64,000 bases of DNA from Candidatus Micrarchaeota archaeon (GCA_016212475.1 JACRGC010000016.1:9824-73823), one strand, 5' to 3'; numbered from the stretch's first letter, positions 10,946 through 31,161 are shown. The notes: a model not told the origin generated them from the sequence alone. Numbers and translations are program-made.

Positions 10946-10979
10946 TGGGGCATTTGCCACTTGAAGAGGTATATATGAA

Positions 10980-13340: not shown

Positions 13341-13814
13341 CTAGCCTTGATCTAAAATCGCATCCACATTTCCAAACTTTTTCCCATGTTTTTCCATTGC
13401 CTGCATGATTTCCCAAACCTGCTTTTTAGAAATTATTTTCTTCGCCCAAAACGCCTTTAGCAGCATTGGCAAAGTAAAACAGCTGACCCCAAAATCCGTG
13501 CAAGCCTTTTTCACTGATGGTTCGTCTGTTAGCAGAATAAACCCGTTCGCCTTTGCAATTGCAATATTTTGAATTTCAATTTTCGAAAGTAAATGGCCGT
13601 TCTTGCCCTTTATTTTTTTCATCATCAAATATTCTTTTTTTCCAAGTTTTGATATATGCAAATGATACTTTAATTTCATTCCGTTTTTTTTCATCAAATT
13701 ATTCTCAACATTTGCAATATGGAAATTCGGTTCCCCAAAAAGCTCACTCACAGATGTTATAGCATTGGCCTTTTCAAGGAGAATCAAGAAATTCGCATTT
13801 GAAATAATTTCCAT
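13341..13814 (-). CDS. PIN-like nucleic-acid-binding protein (DUF3368-like), putative toxin
   Basis: The N-terminal IISNANFLILLEKANAI pattern resembles DUF3368. Lies 4 nt downstream of the UPF0175-like gene. Confidence 0.6.
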   Translation of the reverse strand: MEIISNANFLILLEKANAITSVSELFGEPNFHIANVENNLMKKNGMKLKYHLHISKLGKKEYLMMKKIKGKNGHLLSKIEIQNIAIAKANGFILLTDEPSVKKACTDFGVSCFTLPMLLKAFWAKKIISKKQVWEIMQAMEKHGKKFGNVDAILDQG

Positions 13815-13818
13815 TCAA

Positions 13819-14127
13819 TCACTTGATTTCCTTTATCCTTTCAAGTTCTTCCTTTTCTCCTTTTGTTTCACGAAAAACTTTGTGGTGCTCCATCAATTTG
13901 TGCAGTTCGTCTACGCTAAGCTCTGCAATTTCAGATGCTTTTCCAATGCTGATTTTTCCCTCTTTTAACAGCTCAATTGCAGCTGCATGCCTAAGGTTTA
14001 CCTTATGTTTGAGCAAATGCCTAAGGGCATCCTTTACAACATCGGATTTGCTCGAATAATGCCCCGCCCTAACAAGGGCGTTTATCTCCTCTTCCATAAG
14101 TCTTGTCAAACTGTATGAAGTTACCAT
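13819..14127 (-). CDS. RHH/UPF0175-like antitoxin
   Basis: CopG/RHH-like SKSDVVKDALRHLL, then UPF0175-like ISIGKASEIAELSVDELHKLM. Confidence 0.6.
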   Translation of the reverse strand: MVTSYSLTRLMEEEINALVRAGHYSSKSDVVKDALRHLLKHKVNLRHAAAIELLKEGKISIGKASEIAELSVDELHKLMEHHKVFRETKGEKEELERIKEIK

Positions 14128-14275: not shown

Positions 14276-17200
14276 ATGCGCGGAAGAGTCCTCTTACTTG
14301 CCCCATTTGTTCTAGCGGTGCTTTTGCTTTTATCGATTTCCTCAACAATTTCCGGCGATGATTTAAACCAAACGCTTGATTCCAATTCAACAAATTCATC
14401 AATTGGAAATGCAACTATTGTGCCGACTTTTTCCCCAACCCCTTCCGTATCATCAACTCTGGAGCCAACCCCTTCCCCCTCTCCCGCCCCAATCCCTGCA
14501 ATAACCCCCTTACCAACCCCTTCCCCAACAATCGATATTTCTCCTTCACCAACTTTTTCGCCAACACCTACGCAAATATCTGCTCCAACCCCAACAATTG
14601 ATGCATCCCCCTCCCCCACATTTTCACCAACGCCAATTGTTTCAATTATTCCCTCAATTGCACCAACCCCTGCGATTTCGCCATCTCCAGCTGCAACAAT
14701 TTCACCCACTCCAACAAAAGGGCAAAATAATTTGGCAAATTCAGAATTTGGCTCCGGCATATTCCTTCCAATGTCCGGCGATCCAGGCCCAAGCCCGCCA
14801 TCCCCAAACAGCGCTTGTGATGTAGTGACTGCCGATACTACCCTCATTCAAAATATAGCGGCTTCATACACCTGCTACAATATCACTGGAAATAGCTTGA
14901 CATTCGATTGCGCAGGCTACAACATTACCGGAAACGGTTCGGGCTATGCTTTCAACATTTCCTACAAAAACAATATCGTGATAAAAAATTGCATAATCTC
15001 AAATTTCTCGAGGGCAATTTCAGCAGAGAATGCAATCAACCTTGCGTTCATCAACATCACAATTTACAATGTGACCGATTATGGGATTTTCGTAAATGCG
15101 TCGGCCAACACGAACATTTCATCAGTTTCAATCAGTGAATCAAGGCCGGCTGCGATAGCAATTGCAGGCGCAAACCTTACCGGCATTTACCTGCTAAACG
15201 TTTCAAACGGCAACTTTTCCGACATAACAATTCAAAAACTATTCGCCGGTAACACATCGGTAACAAGCCAGCCCGGAGGTTCGGTTGTTGGAATCAGCTA
15301 CCAAGTTTCCCAAAATTCCAATTTCACAAATATTTACATCAGGAATTTAATTCCAGGTAGGGGAATTACCACCCAAACAGCGGCAGCATTTGGGCATTCC
15401 GGAAATGCAACGGGAATATTTGGCTCAAATTTCAATTCTACTATTTTCCAAAACATTTCCATCCATAATCTTTTGGGTTCGCAAGGAAGCAGGGGAAGGA
15501 ACTCAGGAACCGGAGGAGATGGGTCCGAAAGCAGCAATGTAATTGGGTTCTATGCAACAAATGGAGTTAACAGCACCATTTCAAACCTGACAATATCGAA
15601 TCTTTCATCAGGAGTTGGTGGAAATGGCGGGACTGGCAGCTCGGCGGCAGGAGGCGCTGGGGGCAATGCAGGATTTGTATTTGGCATTTACTTCCAAAAT
15701 TCTTTCAACAATTCGATAAAATCCACGACTATTTTGAATTTGACCGGAGAATTTGGTGGAAATGCGGGCGCTGGTGCAACTATTGGGGGTAATGGCGGCA
15801 TAGGCGGCCAGGTATTTTCGATTGGAATTAGGCAATTATCCTACAATATTTCAATCAATGGAATAGATATCCGTTTTGTTCAAGGAGGAACTGGCGGATC
15901 CTTTGGATCTGGTACGCCAGATGGATCCGGCGGATTTGGCGGAAATTCATCTTTCCTCTACATTTCAAATTCTAATGCCACAACTTTTGAAAACGCATAT
16001 GCAAATTCATCCATCGGGGGCGATATGGGTACTTCAGCAGGCGCTGTGCTAGTTCATGGAGGCATTGGCTCAGGAATCTATTTCCACCTTGCAAATTACA
16101 CAAATATCAACAACGCCAGCCTTTACAATATTTCTTCAGGAACGACTGATGTTTTTGGCATGCTTAGGACTTCCGGATTATTTTTTGCAGCAAGCAGTTT
16201 CAACAAAATTACCAATTCAACCATAAAAATCATCGATCACCACCTTGATGCCTTTGATCCACTAACCGATTATTCCATCTATTCCGAAGGAGGTTCAATC
16301 AATAACAACCTTTTGAACTCCAGCTTCAACCGCTCAAACATCGGCTTTTTTGATGCAGCCGGAATCAACAATCTGACAATCTCATGGTTTGCAACTGTAA
16401 ATGTCACCAACGGTTCCGGGCAGGTTGGCAGTGCAAATGTTAGGATTTACAACCAAACAAGCTCAGCAATTCCGATGCTTTTTGCAACAACGGATTCAAA
16501 TGGGCATGTGAATGCAGAAATTGCCGAAATGACTATTTTTGGCTATATCTCATCTGCCAGCTCGTGCAAAGCGCACGTGAACAACACCTGCTTTACAAAC
16601 CATACAATTTCTGTGAATAATTCCGTATATGCTTTTGGAACATCAATTGCCGTCCTGAATTACTCAAAAACCATCCCGATTTTCCTTTGCTCCTCGCTTC
16701 AAAGCAGTACAACCCTCCAAAACAACGTCTCATTCAACGATGTCTGCTTTACCCTGAATGCAAGCAACATAGTTTTGGACTGCGCAAACAATGCAATCAT
16801 CGGCAACCGTTCCGGCTTTTCAATTGGAGTTTATGCGAATTCCAAATCAAATGTAACAATCAAGAACTGTTACATCTCGAATTTTTCAAGCGGCATCATG
16901 GCAAACTATACATCAAGAAGCGTATTTTTAAACAATACCATAATCGATACGGCAATTGTCAAAAATCAGGGAGCAACCGCCTTTGGAATCTACTTCAACA
17001 ATTCCGATTACAACAATCTAACCTCCAATTTCGTCACAAACCTGAATGCAACTGCAATTTCCTCATTAGGATATCCGAACTGCAATACCTCGACAGTGAA
17101 TTCCTTCAGATTCGAAAATTCCTCCCACAATTTTGCAACCAACATAAACGGCTCGCTTTCAAAAGCAAGGGGGTATTCTTCAAGTGAAGGTTCTTGCGCT

Positions 17201-20200
17201 CTTTCATCAACCGGAATTGGGGTCCATGTTATTTATTCAATTAACAATTCGATAAGCTACGGCAAATTTTCCGGGAACAACTACTTAGGCGCATATTTAA
17301 TCTCGACCAATTCGACAATAATTTCGCATTCTGAATTCATGGGGAATCCGACTGCAGGTTTTTCAGCTGAGGATTCCATAAATACAATCATTAATAATGG
17401 AACATTCATGAACAACAATTTTGTCGGAGTTCAGCTAACTGATTTGGCGAATTTCAATATTTCCATCCTCAACAGCAATTTCACTTTTGATAAAGCATCC
17501 ATAACTTCCCCAAACACCACCCTTGACAATAATTTATTCAGTTTTGGGGATCCTGCAATCAAACTCGATAGCGGGTCCAATGGTTTTTGGATTTCCCGAA
17601 ATACAATCCAGCATTCCGTAATAACATCCACAAATTTTGGGAGCCTCTACATCAAAGCGGGAAATTATGGGCATATTATTGACAATTTGATTTACAATAC
17701 AACCAATACCTCTAACATTGAAGTCGGGGCGGTCTATTCCGAGGGGGATTTTAACAATTACACTGGGAACAACATTACGAATTCCTCGGTTTATGGTTTC
17801 TATTTCAGGGGAGCCACAAATAATTTAATTGCAAGCGGGGTAATTTCACAAACAGCTAAAAACGATTCCCATTTTCCAATCCTATCGAGTAATAATGTAT
17901 TCTTGAACATGAGCTTTAATCGCTCAAAAATAACAGCTGCCGGCGGTAGCAATTTAACCATACGATGGTACCTTACATTAAACATTACAAATTCATCCGG
18001 TGGACCAATTCCTGCAGCTTCTGTAAACATAACCAATAATTCCTTCGGTCCAATGTACGCAATTTCAACTAATGCCGATTCAACCGGATATTTGCGGAAC
18101 CAAATCATTACCGAATACATCGTAAACGGTTCCCATGGCTACGATGCGATGTGCCTCAACCAAAACACCGTAAATTGCTACAACCCGCACACATTCCTAA
18201 TCCAAAACCGCTCATTCAACGACAACCAAACCTCATTCAACATAACCTCTTCTTCAACGCTCCAAATAATACTTTACCCTGATTCAACATTCCCATCAAA
18301 TATTACACTTGTTTCCCCAACTCCATTGAATGGTTCTGGCCAGACAGTAAACTGGTTCATTGTCAATTTCACATTCAATGAAACCTACCCCCAAACCTGC
18401 TGGGTTTCCCTAACCAATACAAGCAACCACAACTTGACAATGGCAATGGATGGCAATAGCTGCTACCTAAATGTCACCGGCCAATCCGATGGCTCTTGGA
18501 ATTACACGGTTTTTGTAAACGATTCCGTTGGAAATACCGCATCAAATGGCACGTTTTTCATTGCATTTGATTCAAATGTGCCAACCAACATCCAAACCGT
18601 TTTCCCAACCCTAAATAATGCAACTTATACCTCCCAAAACTGGGTCATTGTAAACACTACCTTTACCGAACTCAACCCCAACAATTGCATTTTGCAATGG
18701 GGCAATGGCACATTCCAAAACCTTTCCATGGCAAGAAGTGGCAATAGCTGCTATCTCAATGTTACCGGCCAAACACAAGGCGTGCATAATTATACTATAA
18801 TTGTAAATGATACCGCCGGCAACTTCGCCCAGAATGGCACGTTTTACATTACAATTGACTTAACCGCCCCGTCCACAATCGAAATAGTTTCTCCAACCCT
18901 TTCAAACGCATCATACACAATTCATAACTGGGTTTACTTCAATGCCACGTTCACGGAAACAAACCCAAACAACTGCATCCTCCAATACAGCAACGGCTCC
19001 CTTGCCAACTATTCGATGACGAGAAGCAATAATAATTGTTATTTGAATCTGACCGGCCAACCAAACGGTGCGCACAATTACACAATAATCGTCAACGATT
19101 CAGCTGGCAACCTTGCCCAAAACGGAACCTTCTTCATCACACTTGACTCAACTCCTCCCTCTGCAATACAAACCGTTTTCCCGACCCTAAATAATGCAAC
19201 TTATACCTCCCAAAACTGGGTCTTCATCAATTCAACTTTCACAGAACTCAACCCCAACAATTGCATTTTGCAATGGGGCAATGGCACATTCCAAAACCTT
19301 TCCATGCAAAGGAGTGCAAACACCTGCTTCCTAAACATCACAACACAACCCGAAGGCATCCACAACTACACAATAATTGTCAACGATTCAGCCGGCAACT
19401 TCGCCCAGAATGGCACATTTTACATTACAATTGACTTAACCGCCCCGTCCACAATCGAAACAGTTTCTCCAACCCTTTCCAATTCATCAGTTACAATTCA
19501 AAATTGGGTTTTCATAAATGCCTCATTCACGGAAACCAACCCCAATAATTGCATCTTGCAATACAGCAACGGCTCACTTGCAAACTATTCCATGGCAAGG
19601 AGCGGAAATAACTGTTATGCAAACCTTACAAACCAGCCCCAAGGAGCACACAATTACACAATTATTGTAAACGACACCTCAGGCAACCTTGCCCAAAACG
19701 GCACATTCTTCATAACAATTGATCAAACCGCCCCATCCCAAATAACTCTTGTTCCTCCATCCCCATCAAACAATTCCCGGATTTACAACGGCTCAGCAAC
19801 AATCAATGCAACCTTCACGGAAGCAAATCCCAACAACTGCCTTCTCCAATACAGCAACGGCTCACTTGCAAATTATTCCATGGCAAGGAGTGGGAACAGC
19901 TGCTATTTTGATTTGACAAATCAGCCAAATGGCAACTGGAACTACACAATAATTGTAAACGATTCCGTTGGCAATCTTGCCCAGAACGGAACTTTCTTCA
20001 TAAGCTTTTGGATCAACACCTCCCTGAATTATTTGCAATCAAACCAATCCTACGATAACAACGGCAAAGTCAACATAACCGCAATATTTTCAAGGAACGA
20101 TAGGCTGAATTTGACCATAGACACAACTCTTGCCAATTTCATCCTTGGAAATGGCACAAACATAACAATAAATGCAAACAACATATCCCTCAACTTTACC

Positions 20201-23200
20201 GACCAGCCAACCAACACCACATATTTTGCATCGGGCCTTTTTGAACGAACAATTGATGCGGGCTATCCAAATGCGCACTGGAAAATCAATTGGAATGCAA
20301 ACGAATTTTCAAATGCATCCCTGACTGTGCAAGCCGCTGTTTCTGGCGACAATTCGACATTCACAGCTTTTGAAAACCTGACAAACCCGCTTGGCACAAT
20401 CCTTAACCTAACTCCGGCTAGATACCTGAAATATAGGCTGGTTTTCAATTCAAACGGCTCTTCAAGCGCCTTCCTTAATGAAATCAATGCAACTGCCCTG
20501 TTTGGCATAAACGGCTCGGCTTCATTTGTTTTAACCAACCTGCAAACCGGAGCAACTGCAACCAAATCCTGCACTGCAATCAATGGCAATTGTTCCGTCC
20601 CATTCCTATTCCCTTCAGACCTCCCATCCGGCAATTACTCGGTAAATATTTCCGCTTCAAATTCAGCCGAAGGGTATGAATCCGCCTTTTTAATTTACAA
20701 TTCCACTTTTGAAGAATCCCTCTCAAATGCATCCGTATTTTCACCATCAAAAACCGTAACCAATTTCATTGCCGGATCAACATGGTATCTCCACAATGTA
20801 ACCGTTACGGCAAATTCCAACGGCTCGATTTTCAATGTTTCAATCAATTATACATCAAAGCCCGCCTCTTGGGAAATTGCAACGCTTAGCACTTCCTGTT
20901 CCGGCAAGCTTTTTCCCTCCCAAACATGCAATTCAACATTCAATGTCACGGTTGGATCCGATGCCACTCCAAATACCTATGTAATCACATGGAATGCCTC
21001 TTGGCTAACCAACAACAACACGAATTTTGGCAATTCCACTCCTTCAAATGTGGTTATCCAATCCTCCCCTGCAATTTCCGCTAACATTTCCGAAATAAAC
21101 GTTTCTTCAAACCTAAGCCAAAGCAATGTCACAATTGTGCGCATCTCAAACATTGGAAACGTCCAGCTCCAAAACGTTACCGCCTCATTCATCCCAACGA
21201 ATGCAAATTCAAGCTGGTTTTCATTCAATCCCCAAATCAGGACAACCCTTTCAGCTGGAAATAATTATGATTTAACCATAAACATTACAGTCCAATCCCC
21301 CTTCACAGCCGGAACTTACACTGGAAAAATAAACATAACCGCAGACGATGCAACAAATGGGGTAAATTCTACTTCAACATACATCAACGTGACAATTATT
21401 CTTGCTCCCCAAATTCTAGCCGCTCCCTTTGCAGTTACCGCAAACCAATCCCTTTCCTCCCCCCAAACATTCAATGCAACTATTTCAGCCCCCGGCAATT
21501 CGCCCCTGACAAATGTATCCGTTTCCATAATCAACTCAACAATTCCGCTGACCTGGATTGCCATTAATTCATCTTCAAGCAATTGGAACACCTCCACAAA
21601 TACATGGACGGTTATTTCCGAGGGCTCCGGCGCTGTTTTGCAGATAATTGTTTCCATCCTTGATTTCATTTCCGGAATCTTTTCTGCGCTGATCAAAATT
21701 ACCTCTAATGAAGGGGTCGCAACCTACGTAAATGTAACCGTAAATGTTTCTCCCTCCCTTGCTGCTCAAAATGTAATCAACCTGACTACAACCCATGGCC
21801 AAACAAACCAAACCTCCTTCCTGATCAACTCAACTGGCAATTCCAAGCTGGTAAACCTTACAATTTCCTTGATTGAAGGATCCCTACCAACCAGCTGGGT
21901 ATCATTTTCGCCCTCATTTGTTTCAAACATCACCGAAGGGCTCAACTATTCGATTTCAATGAATGTTTCAGTGCCATTTGGCCAGCCTCCTGGCAATTAC
22001 TCCGGCCAAATCAACATTTCCGGATATAATTCAAACAAAACAATTGGCATAACAATCGAAGTTCCAACCAACCGTTCCTGGTATTACCTTCCATATGGCA
22101 ACCAATTCACGCAATTTGGAATCAGTGAAGCCGGCCCCCTTGGAACCGTTACAATCAACAACACCGGAAATGTGAACCTCACATTTGATTTGGCCTATGC
22201 GGACTACGATGGCCGTGCAAGCTGCCTATCCCCCACAAATTTCTGCGGAGCTGGCATAGGTTCGCCTGCAAACCCTTCACTAATCAATGCCACCAAGAAT
22301 TCAACAACCTCGTTTACCATAAGGAAAACAATTTCCGGAAATGGGAACAATACGGATGGATACGCCCTCCAAATTACAATTGCCAACACTTCCGCTATCC
22401 CCTCAACAAATTCAACAATTTTCTTCTTCAACATAACCAATGCGTATCCCAAATTCCTCGAAAATATAATTTACCAAGGAACCATCAACACATCAATCAT
22501 TGAAATAGGCCAGCCTGCAAGATTCAATGTGATTGCAACCGATGATCAGATATTTGGATTAGATCCATCCACTGCAATTTACAACATCTCAAGGCCAAGC
22601 GGCCAAAATGAATCCTTCTTTGCTGTAAACCAAACCCTTGACAAGGATGTAGTGTGCGGCGGCAATTGCCAGGACGCCCAAAATTACACGTTGCAATACA
22701 ACGGAACCAATGTAACTGGCGTTTTCAATATTACTTTCCAAGTAAAGGATTATTTGAGCCAGCAGAACATGACCTCTTTGCAATTCCAAGTGGTTGCAAC
22801 AACCAACCTGACAATCAGCGGAAACAATTCGCAGGTTTTCAATGTTTCCAGCTCGCAAAATTCCCCCCTTCTGCTCAACGTTTCTATCAGGAACACCGGC
22901 CAAGTAAACGCCTACTCTATCAATTTCTCAGGAATGATCACAAGGCTTTCCAATTCGACAAACACGCTTGCAAATTGGAGCTTTAATCCAATTCCAGCAA
23001 TTGCCTTCCTGAATTCTTCAACCCAAAATCTAACTACTTTCAATATCTCAATTGCCCAAAAATCATACGGCACATATTATTTCACTCCCAATGCAACCTA
23101 CCGCCAGCCAAACGGGACAATTGAAGTTATTTGGGGCCCAAACCTAACAATTGAAGTTCCTGAAAACGCCAACTTTTCGCTAACCCCATCAAACCAATCG

Positions 23201-26200
23201 CTTGCAATACACCACAGCCTATTGCAATCCGAATGGTTTACCATAAACTCGAATGGCAATGCAAATCTCACAAATTACAACATCTCCTACTCCACCTTAT
23301 TTTCGAACTTCACTGTAAATTTCAGCCAAACAACAGGCTCTTTGAATGTTGGCGAATCTGCAAACATCACTTTCAACGTATCCGTTTCAACAGGGGCAGT
23401 TTCCGGCAACAGGAATTTTACCATCAATGTCACAACAAGCAGCTATTCCCGCACTTTCAACGTGAACCTAACCGTTCCCTTCAACAACACCTGGTCTATC
23501 AGCTCAAATACATTGGCAATTGAAGGAATAGCCTCAGATAACCAAGTCAATTCCCAAATCATCATCAACAATTCCGGAACCTCCGATGCCAATCTTAATT
23601 TCACTTTCAATCTGACGGGGAATATGACCCAATTCTCCAACCTTCTCAATTCATCAAATTACCTGAATTATTCCCAAGGCTTTGCAATCCCAATCAACTA
23701 TTCCGCCCCCGATGTGAACGCATATTACATAGGCGTTTTGAACATAACCGAATCAAACTCGAGCATTTCCAGATTGGTAAATATCACATTCAGGGCAGTA
23801 ACCGTCCAGCTTGTTGTCCAAAGCTTCTTTGCCCCTGCCCAAACAATTGCCGGGGATGCAATCAACACCTCCCTTCTGTTAATTTTCGGAGGGCAAAATT
23901 CAACTGTCAACTCCACTTGGAGCCTATATTTGGGAACGAATGCATGCGCATTAACCAGCAATTCAACAGTTGGAAATCTTACCTCCCTTGGATGCAATGC
24001 CCCAACAATTAGCGATGGCAGGTTTTACAATTTCACAATTTCCGTTAATTATTCAACCGGCAACACTTACCTGACAAAAAACACAACCAACAATTCGGCA
24101 ATTTTCTACCGCGATGTTTCAGCCCCAACGGTTTTGAATGAAATCACAAACGATACTTCGCAATATTCGAATATCACAATTATCCTTAACGCCTCCGACA
24201 ACGTCCAAGTGGCGAATACCACATTGCTCTTAACCTATCCCAACGGAACCTCTTCCAATTTCTCCCTTCCCTTCGATTCCACCTTGCAATATTTCAAAGC
24301 CCCCTTCAATTTCACAGGCCTTGGCCTTTACAACATCACTTTTGTTGTGAATGATACTTCGGGAAACAACAATGCATCGGTGAATGGATCGTTTGAAATT
24401 TACTCGACAAGATTTTTCAATGGGTCAATACTCAATCTGGAGGGCAATCCAATCAACACGACCTTCATAGTTGCAAATTCCACTGAAGGCAACCTTGAAG
24501 CATTCGCAACCAACGCCTCTGGCTATTACAACGTGACCCTTAGATCCAAATGGTATTTCCTATCCGCAAAGTTCCTCAATTTCAATTTCACGATTTCAAA
24601 AGTCGATTTCACAACCATCAACCAAAGCTTCATTTCAATTGACAATTTTTCCGGTTCCGACATAATTTCCCAAGTCAGCGGAGCCAAATCCGGCTTTGCC
24701 GTTATAATCGATGCGCCCAACAATGCAACAATTTCAGTTGACTATTCCTCCCTTCTTTCATCAATCACCGACGAATCCGCTCTTAGGATTTACCGATGCT
24801 CAAACTACACTTATGCGTCAAGGTCATGCGTTACTAGCTGGTCTGCGCTATCCGAATTTACAACCAATACGGTTCTGAACATAATCACTTCCAATGCAAC
24901 TTCCTTTGCAAACTCAACTAATGCGTACGCGCTTGTTCAAGTGCCAGCTTCAAGCACTCCCGCCCCAACACCAGCCCCTTCGGGCGGTGGCTCAAGCGGA
25001 GGTGGCGGAGGTGGTTTAGCTCCTGCAGCTACGCCAACCCCAACAGCCACTCCAAAAGCCGACAATGTTTCCGCGCAAATAGACGAGCTCAAAAAACTCC
25101 TTGAAAAGAACGAATCAAAACAAATCGGAGTCGAGCCCGGAGTCCAGAGCATAACAATTGAACTTTTGCCAGGAGAGGATTCGCAAACCCCCTTCCATCT
25201 GAAAAACAATTTGAATATCTCGTCAAACATTTCCATAACAATTGCCGGCACTGCAAAACAATTTGTGACTCCTAGCGTTTCTTCCATCAAATTAATTCGG
25301 CTTCATGAAACCGACATTTTGCTTTTTGCAAGCATTCCCGAAGGCACTCGCCCAAGCACCTACTATGGCGAGCTTCAACTTTCAAATGAAGTTGGGAAAG
25401 TTTCCATCCCCCTTGTTGTTCGCGTACTTGAAAAGCGGGAAAATCGGGCAATTGATCTTCGGCTCCAGCCCCTCGTTGAAAGCCTAGATCCCGGCGAAAC
25501 GCTTCGGGTCGAAGTCAATTTGTACAATTTGGCGGATCCAAAGGATTACAAGGGTGCATTCACGCTTGAACTGGTCGATCCCGTAACCGATACAATTATT
25601 GTCCAAAATCCTCCCGAAGAAATAACTTTCCAAACCACACTAAATAGCATAAAACCGCTCAAAATACCTCGTGATACCCGCACAGGCAGATTCGTAGTAC
25701 GGGGAATTTACGAGTACAATTTGGGATCTGGCAAGCGCGAAATTTCAGCTGTTGCCTACGTTCGCATCCAAACCTCCATTTGGAGCAGCAAGCTTTTTGG
25801 CACATTATCGCTTTGGCAATTATTCCCAATTCTGATAGTTCTAGCCGCCAGTGCAATCACCTACTACCGCCAATACTCCTACCAAAAGAGCAAGCGCAGG
25901 TACGTATCAAAAACCGATTTCACAAAATTGCCAGAACCCGGCTCAAGATCCGGATACCTTGGCCTAATTGCAGAAACAAAAGTGCGCGCATTCGTCCCAA
26001 TTGACAAGCTCCAAACCCACACCCTGATTGCAGGCGCAACGGGCTCTGGAAAAACCGTTGCAGCGCAGGTAATTGTTGAAGAAGCGCTCCAAAAGAACAC
26101 CTCTGTTTTGGTGTTCGACCCAACTGCCCAATGGACCGGATTTTTGCGATCTCAAAAGAATAGGGACATGCTAGCAACCTACAAGCGTTTTGGCATGAAT

Positions 26201-27064
26201 GCCGATGAAGCAAAAGCTTTCAAGGGAAATATTTTTGTTGTTCGGGATCCAAACATGCCCCTTGACATCAAAAAATACATGAAACCTGGCGAAATCACGA
26301 TTTTTGTCATGAACAAGCTTTCCCTTTCAGATCACGAAACATTCATTTCAAATACAGTAAAGCAAGTATTTGCAACCGGACTCCCAGAATCCCCCGAGCT
26401 AAAAATGCTCCTGGTTTATGATGAAGTCCACCGCCTGCTTCCAAAATTCGGTGGCAAAGGAGAAGGTTTTGTGCAAATAGAGCGGGGCGCGCGTGAATTC
26501 AGGAAATGGGGGGTTGGAATGGTCCTAATTTCGCAGGTGCTTTCGGATTTCATAGGCGAAATCAAGGCAAACATTGGAACCGAGCTCCAGCTTAGGACAA
26601 AATACGAAGGCGATTTGGAGCGCTTGAAATTGAAATACGGAGAGGATGCTGCGCGCTCAATAGTTAAGGAAAGCATCGGCTCTGGAATGGTCCAAAACTC
26701 CGAATACAACAACGGCCAGCCATACTTTGTATCCTTTAGGCCCTTGCTCCACAATGTTGTTAGGCTTTCGGATGCCGAGCTATCCTCATATGAAACCTAC
26801 AATGAAAAGCTCGAAAAGCTCGACTTTGAAATGGAGCAGCTTCGGCAATCCGGGTCCGATGTTTTGGATTTGGAGCTCGAAATCAACCTTGCCAGGGATA
26901 AGATTAAGAAGGGCTCGTTCAATATAGTTGAAATATACCTCGAATCCTTGCAAAGCAAAATAGAGGGCATGAAAAAAGCCGTCCAAAAGAAGGCAATGGA
27001 AACGGATTTGGAGGAAATTGGGATGGGCAGTGGGAAATTGAAGGATGGGAAGGAAGATAAATGA
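14276..27064 (+). CDS. Giant surface protein (~4260 aa) with a C-terminal TM helix and a cytoplasmic HerA/DUF87-like ATPase domain
   Basis: One uninterrupted ORF. The ATG at 14276 gives a signal-like start, MRGRVLLLAPFVLAVLLLLSISS. The ectodomain has beta-helix-like and Ig/CARDB-like repeats. TM helix at 25811-25867. Walker A GATGSGKT and Walker B LLVYDEVH, then REFRKWGVGMVLISQ. Confidence 0.9.
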   Translation: MRGRVLLLAPFVLAVLLLLSISSTISGDDLNQTLDSNSTNSSIGNATIVPTFSPTPSVSSTLEPTPSPSPAPIPAITPLPTPSPTIDISPSPTFSPTPTQISAPTPTIDASPSPTFSPTPIVSIIPSIAPTPAISPSPAATISPTPTKGQNNLANSEFGSGIFLPMSGDPGPSPPSPNSACDVVTADTTLIQNIAASYTCYNITGNSLTFDCAGYNITGNGSGYAFNISYKNNIVIKNCIISNFSRAISAENAINLAFINITIYNVTDYGIFVNASANTNISSVSISESRPAAIAIAGANLTGIYLLNVSNGNFSDITIQKLFAGNTSVTSQPGGSVVGISYQVSQNSNFTNIYIRNLIPGRGITTQTAAAFGHSGNATGIFGSNFNSTIFQNISIHNLLGSQGSRGRNSGTGGDGSESSNVIGFYATNGVNSTISNLTISNLSSGVGGNGGTGSSAAGGAGGNAGFVFGIYFQNSFNNSIKSTTILNLTGEFGGNAGAGATIGGNGGIGGQVFSIGIRQLSYNISINGIDIRFVQGGTGGSFGSGTPDGSGGFGGNSSFLYISNSNATTFENAYANSSIGGDMGTSAGAVLVHGGIGSGIYFHLANYTNINNASLYNISSGTTDVFGMLRTSGLFFAASSFNKITNSTIKIIDHHLDAFDPLTDYSIYSEGGSINNNLLNSSFNRSNIGFFDAAGINNLTISWFATVNVTNGSGQVGSANVRIYNQTSSAIPMLFATTDSNGHVNAEIAEMTIFGYISSASSCKAHVNNTCFTNHTISVNNSVYAFGTSIAVLNYSKTIPIFLCSSLQSSTTLQNNVSFNDVCFTLNASNIVLDCANNAIIGNRSGFSIGVYANSKSNVTIKNCYISNFSSGIMANYTSRSVFLNNTIIDTAIVKNQGATAFGIYFNNSDYNNLTSNFVTNLNATAISSLGYPNCNTSTVNSFRFENSSHNFATNINGSLSKARGYSSSEGSCALSSTGIGVHVIYSINNSISYGKFSGNNYLGAYLISTNSTIISHSEFMGNPTAGFSAEDSINTIINNGTFMNNNFVGVQLTDLANFNISILNSNFTFDKASITSPNTTLDNNLFSFGDPAIKLDSGSNGFWISRNTIQHSVITSTNFGSLYIKAGNYGHIIDNLIYNTTNTSNIEVGAVYSEGDFNNYTGNNITNSSVYGFYFRGATNNLIASGVISQTAKNDSHFPILSSNNVFLNMSFNRSKITAAGGSNLTIRWYLTLNITNSSGGPIPAASVNITNNSFGPMYAISTNADSTGYLRNQIITEYIVNGSHGYDAMCLNQNTVNCYNPHTFLIQNRSFNDNQTSFNITSSSTLQIILYPDSTFPSNITLVSPTPLNGSGQTVNWFIVNFTFNETYPQTCWVSLTNTSNHNLTMAMDGNSCYLNVTGQSDGSWNYTVFVNDSVGNTASNGTFFIAFDSNVPTNIQTVFPTLNNATYTSQNWVIVNTTFTELNPNNCILQWGNGTFQNLSMARSGNSCYLNVTGQTQGVHNYTIIVNDTAGNFAQNGTFYITIDLTAPSTIEIVSPTLSNASYTIHNWVYFNATFTETNPNNCILQYSNGSLANYSMTRSNNNCYLNLTGQPNGAHNYTIIVNDSAGNLAQNGTFFITLDSTPPSAIQTVFPTLNNATYTSQNWVFINSTFTELNPNNCILQWGNGTFQNLSMQRSANTCFLNITTQPEGIHNYTIIVNDSAGNFAQNGTFYITIDLTAPSTIETVSPTLSNSSVTIQNWVFINASFTETNPNNCILQYSNGSLANYSMARSGNNCYANLTNQPQGAHNYTIIVNDTSGNLAQNGTFFITIDQTAPSQITLVPPSPSNNSRIYNGSATINATFTEANPNNCLLQYSNGSLANYSMARSGNSCYFDLTNQPNGNWNYTIIVNDSVGNLAQNGTFFISFWINTSLNYLQSNQSYDNNGKVNITAIFSRNDRLNLTIDTTLANFILGNGTNITINANNISLNFTDQPTNTTYFASGLFERTIDAGYPNAHWKINWNANEFSNASLTVQAAVSGDNSTFTAFENLTNPLGTILNLTPARYLKYRLVFNSNGSSSAFLNEINATALFGINGSASFVLTNLQTGATATKSCTAINGNCSVPFLFPSDLPSGNYSVNISASNSAEGYESAFLIYNSTFEESLSNASVFSPSKTVTNFIAGSTWYLHNVTVTANSNGSIFNVSINYTSKPASWEIATLSTSCSGKLFPSQTCNSTFNVTVGSDATPNTYVITWNASWLTNNNTNFGNSTPSNVVIQSSPAISANISEINVSSNLSQSNVTIVRISNIGNVQLQNVTASFIPTNANSSWFSFNPQIRTTLSAGNNYDLTINITVQSPFTAGTYTGKINITADDATNGVNSTSTYINVTIILAPQILAAPFAVTANQSLSSPQTFNATISAPGNSPLTNVSVSIINSTIPLTWIAINSSSSNWNTSTNTWTVISEGSGAVLQIIVSILDFISGIFSALIKITSNEGVATYVNVTVNVSPSLAAQNVINLTTTHGQTNQTSFLINSTGNSKLVNLTISLIEGSLPTSWVSFSPSFVSNITEGLNYSISMNVSVPFGQPPGNYSGQINISGYNSNKTIGITIEVPTNRSWYYLPYGNQFTQFGISEAGPLGTVTINNTGNVNLTFDLAYADYDGRASCLSPTNFCGAGIGSPANPSLINATKNSTTSFTIRKTISGNGNNTDGYALQITIANTSAIPSTNSTIFFFNITNAYPKFLENIIYQGTINTSIIEIGQPARFNVIATDDQIFGLDPSTAIYNISRPSGQNESFFAVNQTLDKDVVCGGNCQDAQNYTLQYNGTNVTGVFNITFQVKDYLSQQNMTSLQFQVVATTNLTISGNNSQVFNVSSSQNSPLLLNVSIRNTGQVNAYSINFSGMITRLSNSTNTLANWSFNPIPAIAFLNSSTQNLTTFNISIAQKSYGTYYFTPNATYRQPNGTIEVIWGPNLTIEVPENANFSLTPSNQSLAIHHSLLQSEWFTINSNGNANLTNYNISYSTLFSNFTVNFSQTTGSLNVGESANITFNVSVSTGAVSGNRNFTINVTTSSYSRTFNVNLTVPFNNTWSISSNTLAIEGIASDNQVNSQIIINNSGTSDANLNFTFNLTGNMTQFSNLLNSSNYLNYSQGFAIPINYSAPDVNAYYIGVLNITESNSSISRLVNITFRAVTVQLVVQSFFAPAQTIAGDAINTSLLLIFGGQNSTVNSTWSLYLGTNACALTSNSTVGNLTSLGCNAPTISDGRFYNFTISVNYSTGNTYLTKNTTNNSAIFYRDVSAPTVLNEITNDTSQYSNITIILNASDNVQVANTTLLLTYPNGTSSNFSLPFDSTLQYFKAPFNFTGLGLYNITFVVNDTSGNNNASVNGSFEIYSTRFFNGSILNLEGNPINTTFIVANSTEGNLEAFATNASGYYNVTLRSKWYFLSAKFLNFNFTISKVDFTTINQSFISIDNFSGSDIISQVSGAKSGFAVIIDAPNNATISVDYSSLLSSITDESALRIYRCSNYTYASRSCVTSWSALSEFTTNTVLNIITSNATSFANSTNAYALVQVPASSTPAPTPAPSGGGSSGGGGGGLAPAATPTPTATPKADNVSAQIDELKKLLEKNESKQIGVEPGVQSITIELLPGEDSQTPFHLKNNLNISSNISITIAGTAKQFVTPSVSSIKLIRLHETDILLFASIPEGTRPSTYYGELQLSNEVGKVSIPLVVRVLEKRENRAIDLRLQPLVESLDPGETLRVEVNLYNLADPKDYKGAFTLELVDPVTDTIIVQNPPEEITFQTTLNSIKPLKIPRDTRTGRFVVRGIYEYNLGSGKREISAVAYVRIQTSIWSSKLFGTLSLWQLFPILIVLAASAITYYRQYSYQKSKRRYVSKTDFTKLPEPGSRSGYLGLIAETKVRAFVPIDKLQTHTLIAGATGSGKTVAAQVIVEEALQKNTSVLVFDPTAQWTGFLRSQKNRDMLATYKRFGMNADEAKAFKGNIFVVRDPNMPLDIKKYMKPGEITIFVMNKLSLSDHETFISNTVKQVFATGLPESPELKMLLVYDEVHRLLPKFGGKGEGFVQIERGAREFRKWGVGMVLISQVLSDFIGEIKANIGTELQLRTKYEGDLERLKLKYGEDAARSIVKESIGSGMVQNSEYNNGQPYFVSFRPLLHNVVRLSDAELSSYETYNEKLEKLDFEMEQLRQSGSDVLDLELEINLARDKIKKGSFNIVEIYLESLQSKIEGMKKAVQKKAMETDLEEIGMGSGKLKDGKEDK
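14423..14716 (+). repeat. Pro/Thr/Ser-rich low-complexity linker with an internal ~72-nt direct repeat
   Basis: PTPSPTIDISPSPTFSPTP is followed by APTPTIDASPSPTFSPTP. Confidence 0.8.
15476..16085 (+). repeat. Gly-rich periodic segment (~45-aa period) inside the beta-helix-like region
   Basis: Recurrent NxS-I-xNL-xG-xGGNGGxG...GGxGG...G(I/F)YF blocks, read from the translation. Confidence 0.5.
18293..20020 (+). repeat. Six tandem 288-nt (96-aa) domain repeats with a 576-nt higher-order duplication
   Basis: Unit starts are 18293, 18581, 18869, 19157, 19445 and 19733, all in frame. Long identical runs sit 576 nt apart, for example at 18593/19169 and 18860/19436. Confidence 0.9.
25955..26760 (+). 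other. HerA/DUF87-like P-loop ATPase domain of the giant protein (cytoplasmic side)
   Basis: THTLIAGATGSGKTVAAQVIVEEAL...VLVFDPTAQW (Walker A at 26033-26056). MLLVYDEVHRLLP (Walker B at 26408-26431). GAREFRKWGVGMVLISQVLSDF. Confidence 0.75.
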
Positions 27065-27084
27065 TTTTTGATTAGTGGTAATTG

Positions 27085-28833
27085 ATGAAAGTATTCGATA
27101 AGATGCTAAAAAAAGAACTAACCGAAGAAGAGCTCCAGGCAAAGGAGGATTCGATGATGAAATCCTCGGAGGAAAAATACGAGGAAGATCAGGTTCTTTC
27201 TGAAAATGCTTCCCCAAAAAAATCTTCCTCTCCAAGCACTTCCGATCGGGCGTACGTCCAGCTTGAAAAGGATGTGGAACTTTTGAAAATCCAGCTTGAG
27301 CTGATAAAGCAGCAAAAAACCGTTTCGGATGAGAAATTTTCCCATTTTTCCGAGCAGATTGGGGAAATACGCGCAACCGTATTGGATTCCGAGCGCGACG
27401 GCGCAACAATCAAGATGCAGGCTGAAAAATCAATCGAACTAATCCAGATGGTCCAGCCCGAAAAAGTGATGCAAAACATCAAAAAGCTCGAGCTGAAGGT
27501 CGAGGAGGCAAAAGCAGTCGAGGAAAAATTCTCTGCAATGCAGCAAAAACTTATCGATGAGCTAAAAGAGCTTCGGCAGCGAACCGATGCAATCCGCGGC
27601 TCTGAAACCATCCTCAAATTGAACGAGCAGGTAAAAGAGGAGCTTTCATCCGCCCTTTCCGTCCAGGCCAAAATGGAAGCAAAAGCCGACAAGGTCGAGG
27701 CAATGTTTGCGGATTTCCAGCAGCACTACTATGAATACCAAAAAGTTTTCGATCGCATGAAGGAGCTAAACCTAAGCTTCAATGACATTTCAAAGGATTT
27801 CAACGTATTCAAGGTAAAAGTTGAAAGCTCCGCTTCCAAGTCCGATTTTGTCAAGCTAAAGGAGGAAATCAAGGGCTATGGCAACGAACTTGACTTGAAA
27901 TTGGTCGAGCTAGAAAAAGCCGGCGCAAAAACCGCAATGATCCGCGATGATTTGATGAAGGACCTGAACGATGAGATGGATTCCGTGAAAAAGGAAATAC
28001 TCCAAAAAGTTTCCGATGTTTCGGATGCAAAGCAAAAAATCGATTCCATGAAATCCGACCTCCAAAAATCCCTCCAATCCGAAAATGCAATTCTTAGGAA
28101 AGATGTAGACTCCAAAATCAATTCGGTTCAAAATGATGCCAATTCCCGCCTCTTGAATCTTGAAAAAGATGTGGACGAACGGATTTCCAAAATAGAGGCC
28201 ATTTCTGAATCCTTGCCAAAGCTTTCAAAAACAGTTGCCGGCCTCGAGGAAGATTCAACCGAACTTGCCGAACTTAAGGCGTTTTTTGAAAAATCATCAA
28301 AAGATCTTTCATCCCTAAAAGAAACCGTAAGGCAAATCGAAAGCTCCCTTAGCAAATTCGAAAAAATTGCAGACCAGCTTGAAACCCTAACTTCAGAATC
28401 AAAAGATGCAAAAGGAATCCGTTTTGAATTGGAAAAACGCCTAAAATCCGTCGAGGCAAAATCCGAGGAGCTGGTAAACAAGGCAAATAGGAAACTTGAC
28501 TCGGTTGTTTCCGACACCCAAGACAATACAACCGTGCTTCGCGACCTCCTAAAGGACCTATATTCGCTCAAAACCCATTCGGCCAATTCCATAACCAAAA
28601 ATGATCTTAATGCGACCCAAAAATCCATCAATGAAAAGCTGATTGCATTTGACATGATGCTAATAAAACTAGAGCATCGGATTACGGATGCGGATTCCAC
28701 AATGCGCGCAGTCCAAAAGGAATTTTCAACGGAATTGAAGGAATACAAAAAGGAAAACGATTCCAAAATCAGGGAACTTGAAAAATCCAAAAAATTCCAA
28801 GATTCCAAAGCGGAAAGCACGGACATAAAATAG
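27085..28833 (+). CDS. Long coiled-coil protein, likely co-transcribed with the giant gene
   Basis: 582 aa. Rich in K, E, L, S and D with heptad-like periodicity throughout and no TM helix. The ATG lies 20 nt after the giant gene stop codon. Confidence 0.7.
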   Translation: MKVFDKMLKKELTEEELQAKEDSMMKSSEEKYEEDQVLSENASPKKSSSPSTSDRAYVQLEKDVELLKIQLELIKQQKTVSDEKFSHFSEQIGEIRATVLDSERDGATIKMQAEKSIELIQMVQPEKVMQNIKKLELKVEEAKAVEEKFSAMQQKLIDELKELRQRTDAIRGSETILKLNEQVKEELSSALSVQAKMEAKADKVEAMFADFQQHYYEYQKVFDRMKELNLSFNDISKDFNVFKVKVESSASKSDFVKLKEEIKGYGNELDLKLVELEKAGAKTAMIRDDLMKDLNDEMDSVKKEILQKVSDVSDAKQKIDSMKSDLQKSLQSENAILRKDVDSKINSVQNDANSRLLNLEKDVDERISKIEAISESLPKLSKTVAGLEEDSTELAELKAFFEKSSKDLSSLKETVRQIESSLSKFEKIADQLETLTSESKDAKGIRFELEKRLKSVEAKSEELVNKANRKLDSVVSDTQDNTTVLRDLLKDLYSLKTHSANSITKNDLNATQKSINEKLIAFDMMLIKLEHRITDADSTMRAVQKEFSTELKEYKKENDSKIRELEKSKKFQDSKAESTDIK

Positions 28834-28984
28834 CACCCAATCCCAAGCATTCCAATACTATGCGATCCAAGATTCAAACCCCCCCAAAAAGCCCATTCCC
28901 TAATCAAATCCTTAAATTCAACTTTCCCAAAGCATCCCAAGCAATTTTTAACCAATTCTTCCATATAGTTTGCGTGGGTTTTAG

Positions 28985-30319
28985 ATGAAAAAAGTTTTAC
29001 TCGTAGCGCTTGGATCAACCGCACGGGCAGATTGCCTAGCGCATGCAATACATAAAAGCCATGATTCCGAGCTCCACTCCTTCATCCAAAGCAAAAACCC
29101 ATCCGTGATGCATCTTTCAAAATCCCACCAAATAGGGAAATTGGATGATTTTTCCGCAATCAAAAAATATGCCAAGCAAGTCAAGCCTGATTTAGCAATC
29201 ATTTCGCCCGACTACGCAATTGCAATTGGGGTTGCTGATATCCTCTCAGAACTTAACATTCCAGTTTTTGCACCCAAAAAATCACTTGCCCGTCTAGAAA
29301 GCTCAAAATCATTCACACGCAGGCTTTTGGAAAAATACCAAATTGCCGGATCTCCCGAGCACAAGGTTTTCGAATCCCTTGAAGGCATACGCGATTACAT
29401 GCTCTACCTGAAGGATTTTGTCGTAAAGCCAGATGGGCTAACCGGCGGAAAAGGCGTAAAAGTTTTTGGCGAGCACATGAAAACAATTGATGAGGCAGTT
29501 GATTACTGCACGGAAATTTTCAGCTCCAAAGGGATCGTAGTAATTGAGGAAAAATTAATCGGCGAAGAATTTAGCATTCAATTCTTTACGGATGGAAAAG
29601 TGTGCCTCCCTTCCCCAATAGTTCAGGATCACAAACGCGCATTTGATGGCGATTTGGGGCCAAATACCGGTGGAATGGGTTCCTATTCTTCCTCAAACCA
29701 TCTTTTGCCCTTCTTAACAAAAGAACATTTGCAAGACGCCCAGCACATAACCAACAAGGTCGCCTTTGCACTAAAAGAAGAGTTCCATGAATACTTCTGC
29801 GGAATCATGTACGGCGGATTCATGCTAACTGCTGATGGAGTTAAGCTAATAGAATACAACGCAAGGTTTGGGGACCCCGAAATTATGAACATTTTGCCAA
29901 TTCTTAAAAATGATTTTGTGGAAGTTTGCGAGGCTGCAACGCAAGGAAGGCTCGATAAGATAAAACTAATATTTGAGGAAAAAGCAACAGTTGTAAAATA
30001 CGCAGTCCCCGAAGGCTACCCTGAAAACCCCAAAAAAGGAGAGGTAATTGACATTTCCGAGTTTGCCAACACCACAGCCAAATACTATTTAGGCGCAGTT
30101 GAGGAATTCGATTCCCATTACCCCTGGAAGCTAAAAATGGGAACTTCGAGGGCAATTGCAACGGTTGGAATTGCCAACACGGTTGAGGAAGCAGAAGCCA
30201 TTGCCGAGCATTCCGTCCGGATGATCCGCGGGCCGGTTTTCCATAGGAAGGACATTGGCACAAAAGAGCTGCTGCAAAGAAGGGTTGATCACATGGCGCA
30301 AGTTAGGTTAAAAAAATGA
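28985..30319 (+). CDS. purD: Phosphoribosylamine--glycine ligase
   Basis: ATP-grasp GARS motifs VVKPDGLTGGKGVKVF, GPNTGGMGSY and IEYNARFGDPE. Confidence 0.92.
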   Translation: MKKVLLVALGSTARADCLAHAIHKSHDSELHSFIQSKNPSVMHLSKSHQIGKLDDFSAIKKYAKQVKPDLAIISPDYAIAIGVADILSELNIPVFAPKKSLARLESSKSFTRRLLEKYQIAGSPEHKVFESLEGIRDYMLYLKDFVVKPDGLTGGKGVKVFGEHMKTIDEAVDYCTEIFSSKGIVVIEEKLIGEEFSIQFFTDGKVCLPSPIVQDHKRAFDGDLGPNTGGMGSYSSSNHLLPFLTKEHLQDAQHITNKVAFALKEEFHEYFCGIMYGGFMLTADGVKLIEYNARFGDPEIMNILPILKNDFVEVCEAATQGRLDKIKLIFEEKATVVKYAVPEGYPENPKKGEVIDISEFANTTAKYYLGAVEEFDSHYPWKLKMGTSRAIATVGIANTVEEAEAIAEHSVRMIRGPVFHRKDIGTKELLQRRVDHMAQVRLKK

Positions 30320-30518
30320 TAAATTCCAAAGAAAAGGCTTTCGAAGAAATGGCAAAATGGGGGACCGCACATGTCAAAGCAAAAGGGCTGAAGCCTTCCC
30401 CAAAAGAAATAGTTAGGAAGCAGCATGGGAAAAAGTGATTTTTTAAGGGTTTAAATGCACCAAAACCTTTTAGTTGCTTTGTGCCTATATTGATTCGGAG
30501 GCATAGCGAGGGAGTAAA

Positions 30519-30713
30519 ATGAGCAAGAATTTTGAATGGTACATAAATGCCAATTTGGAGCATGACGCTGGCAATTGGATAGTTATAATTGACGAAAAAA
30601 TTGTGGCAAGTGGAATTGACTTGAAAAGCCTGCTTGAAGAAACCGACAGGAAATTCCCGCATAAGGAATCCTTGATTGCAAGGATCCCAACCAAGGACAC
30701 ACTAATTCTCTAA
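30519..30713 (+). CDS. DUF5678-like small protein
   Basis: 64 aa. The GNWIVIIDEKIVASG...LLEE...KFP pattern is paralogous to 38979..39194. Lies upstream of an aspartic protease gene. Confidence 0.6.
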   Translation: MSKNFEWYINANLEHDAGNWIVIIDEKIVASGIDLKSLLEETDRKFPHKESLIARIPTKDTLIL

Positions 30714-30726
30714 GCTGGGTGATTGC

Positions 30727-31161
30727 ATGCGTTTTACATTCAAATACAGGAAGGCTAATGATAAATCGGGAAACAAAATCCTTCGCCCCGAAATAGAGGT
30801 AAAATTGGCAAATGGCTCAAAATCCCAAAAAGCAGTTGCCTTGCTTGATTCAGGAGCGGATACCTGCTTTATCCCAAGGGTTTTAGCAGAAAGGCTGGGC
30901 CTTGGGCTTGATGGCAAACCAACAATTACCAAAGGTGTTGGGGGCAAAATAGGGGTTTTTGAATCAACAATTAACATAGAAATTTCAGGAGGGCATGAAA
31001 AAGCAATACTGGAAAATGTTCCGGTTACAATCCCAAAAGAAGATGGTGAAACCGCCTGGATATTGCTTGGCAGGGCTGTTTTTTTCGAATATTTTGAAAT
31101 CAATTTCAGGCAGGCTGCCGACCAGATTGTCCTTAAGAAAGCGGAAGCGTCGCCTTACTGA
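30727..31161 (+). CDS. Retropepsin-like (clan AA) aspartic protease
   Basis: Catalytic LLDSGADTCFIP, and ILLGRAVF near the C-terminus. 144 aa. Confidence 0.8.
   Translation: MRFTFKYRKANDKSGNKILRPEIEVKLANGSKSQKAVALLDSGADTCFIPRVLAERLGLGLDGKPTITKGVGGKIGVFESTINIEISGGHEKAILENVPVTIPKEDGETAWILLGRAVFFEYFEINFRQAADQIVLKKAEASPY

Follow-up and report, generated by a model that had tools for sequence, protein, structure and literature searches.

Can one polypeptide chain carry a giant adhesin outside an archaeal cell and a HerA-type ATPase inside it, and does such a chain belong to any described family? The question is raised by a 64,000-nucleotide (nt) stretch of DNA from Candidatus Micrarchaeota archaeon (GCA_016212475.1, JACRGC010000016.1:9824-73823), hereafter the window, which encodes, in a 12.8-kb gene, a 4262-amino acid (aa) protein at 14276..27064 (+ strand, counted from the first letter of the window) and, just downstream, a 582-aa coiled-coil protein. 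An initial annotation, made by a model from the DNA sequence, described the larger protein as an adhesin-like ectodomain joined through one transmembrane (TM) helix to a cytoplasmic HerA/DUF87-type ATPase, and could assign the combination to no described family. Our analysis identifies it as a chromosomal SPEARE-family gene of a Micrarchaeota-like DPANN archaeon, accompanied by a conserved partner gene. The SPEARE family itself, the re-reading of its intracellular domain as an ATPase and the existence of Micrarchaeota homologues of that domain are already published; what is new here is the conservation of the partner gene next to the ATPase gene across DPANN phyla.

A giant SPEARE-family gene

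SPEARE proteins were described from nanohaloarchaea by Hamm et al. 2019 (PMC6642349) as giants that reach 8553 aa. Most of the chain lies outside the cell; behind a C-terminal TM helix it carries a conserved intracellular domain, which was interpreted as a type III restriction enzyme. The same study reported 655- and 717-aa versions, a nanohaloarchaeal homologue detected by proteomics, homologues of the domain in Woese-, Aenigm- and Micrarchaeota and in Altiarchaeales, and laminin-G and protease domains in the ectodomains. Reva et al. 2023 (PMC10266531) disputed the protease and restriction endonuclease domains in the founding SPEARE members, interpreted the cytoplasmic domain as a VirB4/TraG-like ATPase to which a coiled coil is appended, proposed a secretion ‘straw’, and noted a second VirB4/TraG ATPase downstream in two nanohaloarchaea. 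Beyond these two papers, we found no treatment of the family in the literature on DPANN or nanohaloarchaeal HerA or VirB4.

The window protein fits this family (Hamm et al. 2019; Reva et al. 2023), and the statement that it matched none was not upheld. Its C-terminal 717 aa share 43% identity over 635 aa with RLG14629.1 (BLASTP, E 9e-172), a protein listed as a SPEARE match by Hamm et al. 2019 (PMC6642349) and identical to the open-reading frame (ORF) at one of the related loci in our dataset (L053). Another relative of the window gene lies on a contig (L014) of the Micrarchaeota CG1_02_47_40 metagenome-assembled genome (MAG), a protein of which is included in SI Table S3 of the same paper. 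All the closest relatives of the locus carry a Micrarchaeota label, in one case Norongarragalinales. In common with the published SPEARE proteins, the window protein has a signal peptide, a multi-thousand-residue adhesin-like ectodomain with NEW3 and Ig modules, a single C-terminal TM helix in a long chain, a homologous intracellular P-loop domain and a terminal coiled coil, and in both cases short versions (~650–720 aa) of the protein also exist. It is unlike them in lineage (Micrarchaeota-like vs. Nanohaloarchaeota), in length (4262 aa vs. 6000–9400 aa), in its downstream gene, which encodes a coiled-coil protein as opposed to the second VirB4/TraG ATPase of the two nanohaloarchaea, and in its tip, which consists of duplicated beta-helix and six Big_13 modules. 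The adhesion-type domains found in its ectodomain are Big_13, NEW3 and Beta_helix, whereas laminin-G, serine protease and restriction endonuclease families, and protease-like or toxin-like regions in general, went undetected. We treat laminin-G as descriptive of the family rather than defining, because the ectodomain is its variable part; a Laminin_G_3 domain is present in the nanohaloarchaeal relative P0122.

A search of other genomes for the same fusion of ectodomain, TM helix and HerA-like ATPase, a check proposed with the initial annotation, shows that giants are common. Scanning GTDB species genomes gave 534 confirmed relatives; among the best 80 of these 534 loci many ORFs are 2400–3700 aa long, and more than 25 run beyond the 10-kb upstream flank, at a length of at least ~3900 aa. 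An exhaustive search of 1.84 billion representatives matched 361 clusters at E ≤ 1e-30, and in the best 150 of these 361 representatives, 56 proteins are at least 2000 aa and 20 at least 4000 aa long, the longest having 6253 aa. The matched stretch is near the C-terminal end in nearly all giant representatives listed. On the basis of both searches we rejected the idea that the window protein is a unique giant of an otherwise short (~770-aa) family. A word-indexed protein search, in which giants seem to be fragmented or under-represented, lists only members of ≤791 aa and can mislead on length.

The short members, of ~700–790 aa, consist of their own signal peptide, two beta-sandwiches, a TM helix, the ATPase and a coiled coil, and correspond to the region of the window protein that follows a proline/threonine- and glycine-rich (PT/Gly) linker (24950..25054, +). 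From this alignment the giant form would be the short core extended at its N-terminus by a stalk, which is conserved, and a tip, which varies.

Integrity of the fusion

The giant ORF can start at TTG 14219 or ATG 14276, counts 4262 aa from the ATG, and runs to 27064 on the + strand with no stop from either start, as expected of the single uninterrupted frame that had been annotated; the order of its parts and the one-TM topology likewise hold, with every motif where it had been placed. Such a chain might nevertheless be an assembly chimera or a pseudogene, in which an adhesin gene and a separate ATPase gene were mis-joined, or from which no single chain is expressed, and at the PT/Gly linker the composition does change abruptly. 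In a Logan assembly of SRR12113407, which may share reads with the window, one contig is 99.99% identical to window positions 23045–34077, a stretch that takes in the linker, the TM helix and the ATPase. Other Micrarchaeota MAGs hold orthologues that stay colinear with the window gene across the junction; a single tblastn high-scoring segment pair covers aa 1317–4256 with 60% identity at locus L007, and another aa 1336–4262 with 57% identity at L005. Dozens of giant relatives, from 2000 to more than 6000 aa, have the same order of parts. In addition, no signal peptide was found after the PT/Gly linker in the family-core part of the window protein, and the extracellular core modules, including the beta-sandwich-like ones, therefore depend on the signal at the N-terminus of the whole chain.

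The surrounding gene order points the same way. The arrangement giant gene–partner gene–purD is kept at the related loci L004–L009 (L008 breaks off within purD), and endA is additionally present at L004, L005, L006 and L009; this synteny with purD and endA indicates an ordinary chromosomal locus. Neither a tRNA gene nor an obvious mobile-element marker was found flanking the giant gene, and a second paralogue of the ATPase was not found within the window. Two further observations are in keeping with a split: in the relative L002 a frameshift lies inside the giant gene and the annotation covers only the last 366 aa, and Hamm et al. 2019 (PMC6642349) saw the ectodomain and the TM-cytoplasmic part in separate size fractions, which processing may explain. 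Post-export cleavage at the PT/Gly linker is possible. As the second assembly, the colinear orthologues and the synteny all speak for a true fusion, we regard a chimera or pseudogene as largely refuted and give it hardly any credence.

The L002 locus (GCA_026396285.1, JAPLXB010000045.1) is of some interest for annotation in general. Its frameshift, at locus nt ~5363–5378, splits a Micrarchaeota giant gene into a Kelch/beta-propeller-bearing ORF (30–5486) and an ORF that holds the ATPase (5042–11101), and the sole annotated product is the C-terminal piece, labelled ‘DUF853 family protein’. Further SPEARE-type genes in public MAGs may be under-annotated in the same manner.

A HerA-like ATPase on the cytoplasmic side

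The cytoplasmic part of the chain, its last ~400 residues, holds a P-loop ATPase of the HerA/FtsK superfamily (25928..26773, +), in which Walker A GATGSGKT (26033–26056), Walker B LLVYDEVH (26408–26431) and the HerA-like block REFRKWGVGMVLISQ (REFRKWG..ISQ, 26492–26536), all on the + strand, occupy the positions initially annotated. Pfam DUF87, the HerA central domain, matches with 49.4 bits (cutoff 23.2, E 8e-13), and weaker partial matches were obtained to HerA_C, TrwB, ResIII, T4SS-DNA_transf, AAA_10 and FtsK. A sequence search of the PDB returned anti-phage HerA, YjgR and archaeal HerA. An AlphaFold 2 monomer model of aa 3865–4262, built on an alignment of 121 family sequences, reached a predicted local distance difference test score of 94 and a predicted template-modelling score (pTM) of 0.90; its best Foldseek match is Sulfolobus HerA (4d2i, E 2e-11), next come HerA-NurA and Sir2-HerA, then TcpA and FtsK, at TM-scores of ~0.5. 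The chain closes in a helical/coiled-coil tail (26774..27037, +), modelled as long helices at residues 302–327, 333–347 and 351–389 of the cytoplasmic part, which agrees with the terminal coiled coil first annotated.

The catalytic residues are conserved throughout the family. Among the 121 sequences no variation occurs at the glycines and lysine of Walker A, the glutamate of Walker B, Arg206/209/212 or the serine and glutamine of the ISQ motif, and conservation is ≥90% at the threonines of Walker A and the aspartate of Walker B. We conclude that the ATPase is a HerA-like member of the FtsK-HerA superfamily with intact catalytic motifs, in line with the class first proposed for it, and that it is not a member of the HerA proper, VirB4, VirD4, FtsK or Ced families. 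Assignment to VirB4, TraG, FtsK or Ced was rejected as the family scores all lie far below cutoffs or below the gathering score; Pfam FtsK_SpoIIIE, for instance, gives 21.4 bits against a gathering score of 24, over 31 residues round the P-loop only.

The ResIII match (E 1.5e-7) lies in the same stretch and was the basis of the original SPEARE annotation, by which a type III restriction-like domain would degrade DNA that enters from the host and the ectodomain would act as protease and pore-former (Hamm et al. 2019, PMC6642349). ResIII is, however, a helicase-type P-loop subunit and not a nuclease, DUF87/HerA scores higher, the fold is HerA-like, and no nuclease structure is found in the top 50 Foldseek matches of the ATPase model. 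Profile searches of all segments of the protein turned up no nuclease, protease or toxin family, the ResIII P-loop match standing by itself, and Reva et al. 2023 (PMC10266531) concluded likewise for the nanohaloarchaeal proteins. We consider a restriction enzyme very unlikely, as we do a chimera.

Membrane topology and glycosylation sites

Kyte-Doolittle hydropathy exceeds the threshold at the N-terminus, at aa ~3840–3864 and at aa 2457–2475. The N-terminal peak (2.63, aa 5–23) falls in a predicted Sec-type signal peptide, MRGR followed by a hydrophobic core (aa 1–27, 14276..14356, +). The second corresponds to the single TM helix (aa 3846–3864, 25811..25867, +), exactly where the initial annotation had it, and is followed by a basic patch, KSKRRY, at 25886–25903. 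The third lies within the sequon-rich ectodomain and was not counted as a TM helix. Of the N-X-S/T sequons, 277 precede the TM helix and 1 follows it. From the sequon asymmetry, the TM helix and the basic patch, the P-loop domain is therefore cytoplasmic, in agreement with the orientation first suggested. Between aa 181 and 3558 there are 269 sequons, vs. 114 ± 8 in shuffled sequences and 122 for the reversed motif, and in the stalk they are roughly twice as dense as expected from shuffling; heavy N-glycosylation of the ectodomain is probable. Across the family, median sequon densities are 5.2 (outside) vs. 0.3 (inside) per 100 aa, and 113 of 120 representatives show a TM-like peak 30–130 aa ahead of Walker A.

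Modular organisation of the ectodomain

Around 3840 residues are predicted to lie outside the cell, and would comprise a fast-evolving beta-helix and Ig tip, followed by a stalk of ~1500 aa and a membrane-proximal module, both of which are conserved. The signal-like N-terminus and the Pro/Thr/Ser-rich linker of the initial annotation were both recovered, the latter at aa ~48–167 (14417..14776, +; P, S and T together make up 0.53–0.73 of 30-aa windows). Beyond it, what had been described as roughly 1100 aa of beta-helix-like repeats proved to be ~1160 aa in two duplicated parallel beta-helix modules, the variable tip (aa ~177–800 and 801–1336; 14804..18283, +), in which aa 177–298 resembles 801–932 and aa 674–785 resembles 1204–1314. 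Module 2 matches Pfam Beta_helix/NosD at 33.4 bits (cutoff 25.9) and module 1 does so more weakly; conservation of the region is poor beyond close relatives. Six tandem Ig-like modules follow (aa 1337–1912, 18284..20011, +), with the exact 96-aa period already noted, a mutual identity of 46–84% in an ABAB pattern, and a match to Pfam Big_13 (85 bits, E 4e-24). Tandem Repeats Finder found no DNA-level tandem repeat beneath them.

The stalk (aa ~2040–3558, 20393..24949, +), with predicted NEW3/CARDB-like beta-sandwich modules, is detectable by tblastn in giant loci of several DPANN phyla, whilst the N-terminal ~2000 aa are not. NEW3/NPCBM_assoc matches at aa ~2174–2243 (E 4e-12) and once, weakly, further along; the CARDB/S-layer-like character first ascribed to this region holds to the extent of these matches, which are its sole support. 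The PT/Gly linker, drawn at 24941–25060 in the initial annotation and found at 24950–25054, coincides with a shift in composition and forms the border between N-terminal extension and family core, with the short members matching what follows it. The membrane-proximal module (25055..25810, +), a short helix and two beta-sandwich-like domains, occurs in short and giant forms alike; its two domains would adopt a beta-sandwich fold, to judge from alignment with the ~700–790-aa members. In size, in repetitive Ig and beta-helix modules and in a low-charge, N/S/T-rich, presumably glycosylated ectodomain, the protein is like halomucin and bacterial RTX/Bap-type adhesins, which are unlike it in lacking a TM-fused cytoplasmic ATPase.

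A partner gene conserved across DPANN phyla

The partner gene (27085..28833, +) begins 20 nt (ATG 27085) or 17 nt (TTG 27082) after the stop of the giant gene and encodes 582 aa with a conserved domain at aa ~50–262 (nt ~27232–27870). It had been annotated as a coiled-coil gene at this spacing, and its first 302 aa are indeed all-helical in an AlphaFold 2 model (pTM 0.25). Its co-occurrence with the ATPase gene, a check suggested with the initial annotation, was examined by tblastn with the partner protein at the 70 loci that had enough downstream sequence to be evaluated. A homologue of aa ~50–262 (~210 aa of the N-terminal part) was found nearby in 54 of the 70, adjacent and on the same strand in 41 of those 54, whilst 20 shuffled queries and 1 reversed query gave 0 hits. 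Loci with a homologue come from Micr-, Woese-, Pace-, Nano-, Aenigmat-, Alti- and Nanohaloarchaeota. Its presence beside the ATPase gene in one DPANN phylum after another marks the coiled-coil gene as a real partner; the C-terminal half of the protein is conserved in close relatives only.

In their source records the partner homologues are labelled ‘hypothetical protein’ or carry generic names (YoxC, chromosome segregation ATPase). Neither a Pfam search with 44 homologues nor a PDB profile search gave a specific match, both returning generic coiled-coil matches, although one homologue has a single weak match to PspA_IM30; the AlphaFold 2 model gave no significant Foldseek match (best E 6.1). 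We found no mention of a link between partner and ATPase gene in the literature on the family. With regard to the second ATPase that Reva et al. 2023 reported downstream, the third gene after the giant gene at the nanohaloarchaeal locus L026 looks like a surface protein instead. This 638-aa ORF (14851–16767), which lies beyond the partner homologue, begins by its sequence with a hydrophobic segment, continues with an internally repeated body and closes with a TM-like segment. A copy with 72% identity is present at L042 (9364–11148; unclassified archaeon MAG, isolate GLR71), and no homologue was found in the window.

Possible function

What might the two proteins do? To our knowledge, every characterised member of the FtsK-HerA superfamily (HerA, FtsK, TrwB, VirB4) is a ring-forming polymer translocase, and it is from the biology of this superfamily that we infer ring formation, polymer translocation and the role of the partner. 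The signal peptide would export the ~3840-residue ectodomain and the one TM helix would anchor the chain, whilst the ATPase, by analogy with its superfamily, would assemble on the cytoplasmic face of the membrane into a ring, which is probably hexameric, and so bundle six stalks. The downstream coiled-coil protein would probably serve as a scaffold or adaptor by binding to the ring or to its tail. The ectodomain would bind the surface of the host cell and, where the cells touch, the ATP-driven ring would move a polymer, either DNA or protein, at or across the symbiont membrane. Taken as a whole, a SPEARE gene with its partner, encoding a membrane ring ATPase that translocates a polymer at the host contact, is in our judgement the probable explanation. 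The coupling of attachment to ATP-driven translocation, which the initial annotation had also put forward, is essentially the hypothesis already published.

Several points weigh against this explanation. The curated models of HerA, VirB4, VirD4-TraD, CedD and FtsK match the ATPase in P-loop or Walker B stretches only: the NCBIfam HerA equivalogs reach 20–29 bits in partial matches (cutoffs 800–970), TraD 33 bits (366), VirB4 19 (643), TraC 28 (567) and CedD 32.8 over 50 residues (600). With these scores below cutoff, the mechanism is therefore drawn from superfamily analogy alone. In the ectodomain, no Laminin_G family appears at E ≤ 0.05 and profile scans detected no protease domain. No component of a type IV secretion system (T4SS), of Ced or of NurA was found beside the gene among the window genes scanned, and a set of six lone TM helices is small for a channel that conducts DNA. 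ATPase activity, a hexameric state, a polymer cargo and host binding are all predictions, and the symbiotic lifestyle of the source organism is assumed from its relatives.

Comparison with known systems shows shared features and differences in each case. HerA, whether in HerA-NurA or in the anti-phage Sir2-HerA and DUF4297-HerA systems, is the best profile and fold match (DUF87; 4d2i, 9x1m, 8wod), with a RecA-like core, Walker A and B motifs and conserved arginines in common. In contrast to HerA, the window ATPase is anchored in the membrane and has no room for an N-terminal HAS-barrel (only ~55 residues separate the TM helix from Walker A), and no NurA, Sir2 or DUF4297 partner gene was found beside it; its neighbours, a ribbon-helix-helix (RHH) antitoxin-like gene, the coiled-coil partner and purD, gave no nuclease-family match. 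VirD4, TrwB, TraD and TcpA, together with VirB4, belong to the same superfamily and share the N-terminal membrane anchor and cytoplasmic ring ATPase; TcpA is among the Foldseek matches, and the TrwB and TraD profile matches are weak. The window chain is unlike these in having one TM helix behind a giant ectodomain, in the lack of relaxase or T4SS genes found nearby in window scans, and in scores far below the family cutoffs. FtsK/SpoIIIE and Ced are likewise membrane-tethered DNA pumps of the superfamily, and FtsK motors are among the fold matches. The window protein, unlike them, lacks both a gamma domain and a multi-pass membrane domain, a CedA-like gene was not found nearby, and its ATPase scores below the FtsK_SpoIIIE gathering score and the CedD cutoff.

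The single TM helix per chain, and the channel or secretion partner genes not found nearby, also fit a device that pumps nothing. In such a device an ATP-dependent, partner-scaffolded ring would cluster, tension or release six glycoprotein stalks, exerting inside-out control over adhesion or envelope architecture. The conserved partner, a long helical protein with no enzymatic domain, is scaffold-like, and the conserved stalk and membrane-proximal modules favour a structural role for the ectodomain. The characterised rings of the superfamily, being polymer translocases, speak against a purely structural or avidity function, as does the strict conservation of catalytic motifs across the family, though this is compatible with either reading. 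We think a cargo-free device, and with it inside-out control, unlikely.

Returning to polymer translocation at the host contact, a wider form of this proposal is that the SPEARE core and its helical partner constitute a DPANN-wide two-gene machine, a minimal, lineage-specific envelope translocase at the base of the stalk, which would move host-derived nucleic acid or symbiont effectors through the cell–cell contact. If true, it would provide a molecular basis of DPANN–host exchange distinct from the bacterial T4SS and from Ced. We put this forward tentatively, and consider it rather doubtful.

Other genes in the window

Genes for the large subunit of PolD, for a tRNA-splicing endonuclease and for an Elp3-like protein mark the window as archaeal. 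An RHH/UPF0175 antitoxin-like gene (13819–14127) and a 157-aa ORF (both within 13341–14127, −) immediately precede the giant gene and diverge from it; the flanks retrieved for the related loci contained neither. The tRNA-splicing endonuclease (31995–33200, −; 401 aa) has two N-terminal and two catalytic domains, a two-unit fusion, and shares 83–85% identity with its counterparts in four syntenic Micrarchaeota MAGs (L004, L005, L006 and L009). Three tandem paralogues of ~345 aa follow at 34700–37861 (−; 34700–35737, 35741–36781 and 36821–37861), two of them with weak GNAT acetyltransferase matches. Two PilB/FlaI-type T2SSE ATPases are encoded at 50125–53858 (−) and 1271–2713 (+), one adjoining an 801-aa ORF with weak Ig-like matches; the PilB/FlaI-type locus is probably a type IV pilus or adhesion locus and thus a second surface system in the window. 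Finally, a 348-aa ORF at 57618–58664 (+), between carA (56360–57604) and carB (58752–61847), has a weak LAGLIDADG_3 match (E 8e-4) and may encode a free-standing homing endonuclease that has invaded the carAB operon.

Implications for DPANN symbiosis

SPEARE-type proteins are a leading candidate for the means by which DPANN archaea attach to their hosts and take up material from them. The window reveals no new kind of protein, and shows the SPEARE architecture intact and syntenic in a Micrarchaeota lineage. It sharpens the picture of the family, with a motor that is HerA-like by fold, catalytic conservation that is family-wide, a layout of core plus extension, and a coiled-coil gene that travels with it. 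The linkage of this partner gene to the ATPase gene offers a useful new lead for the study of DPANN symbiosis.

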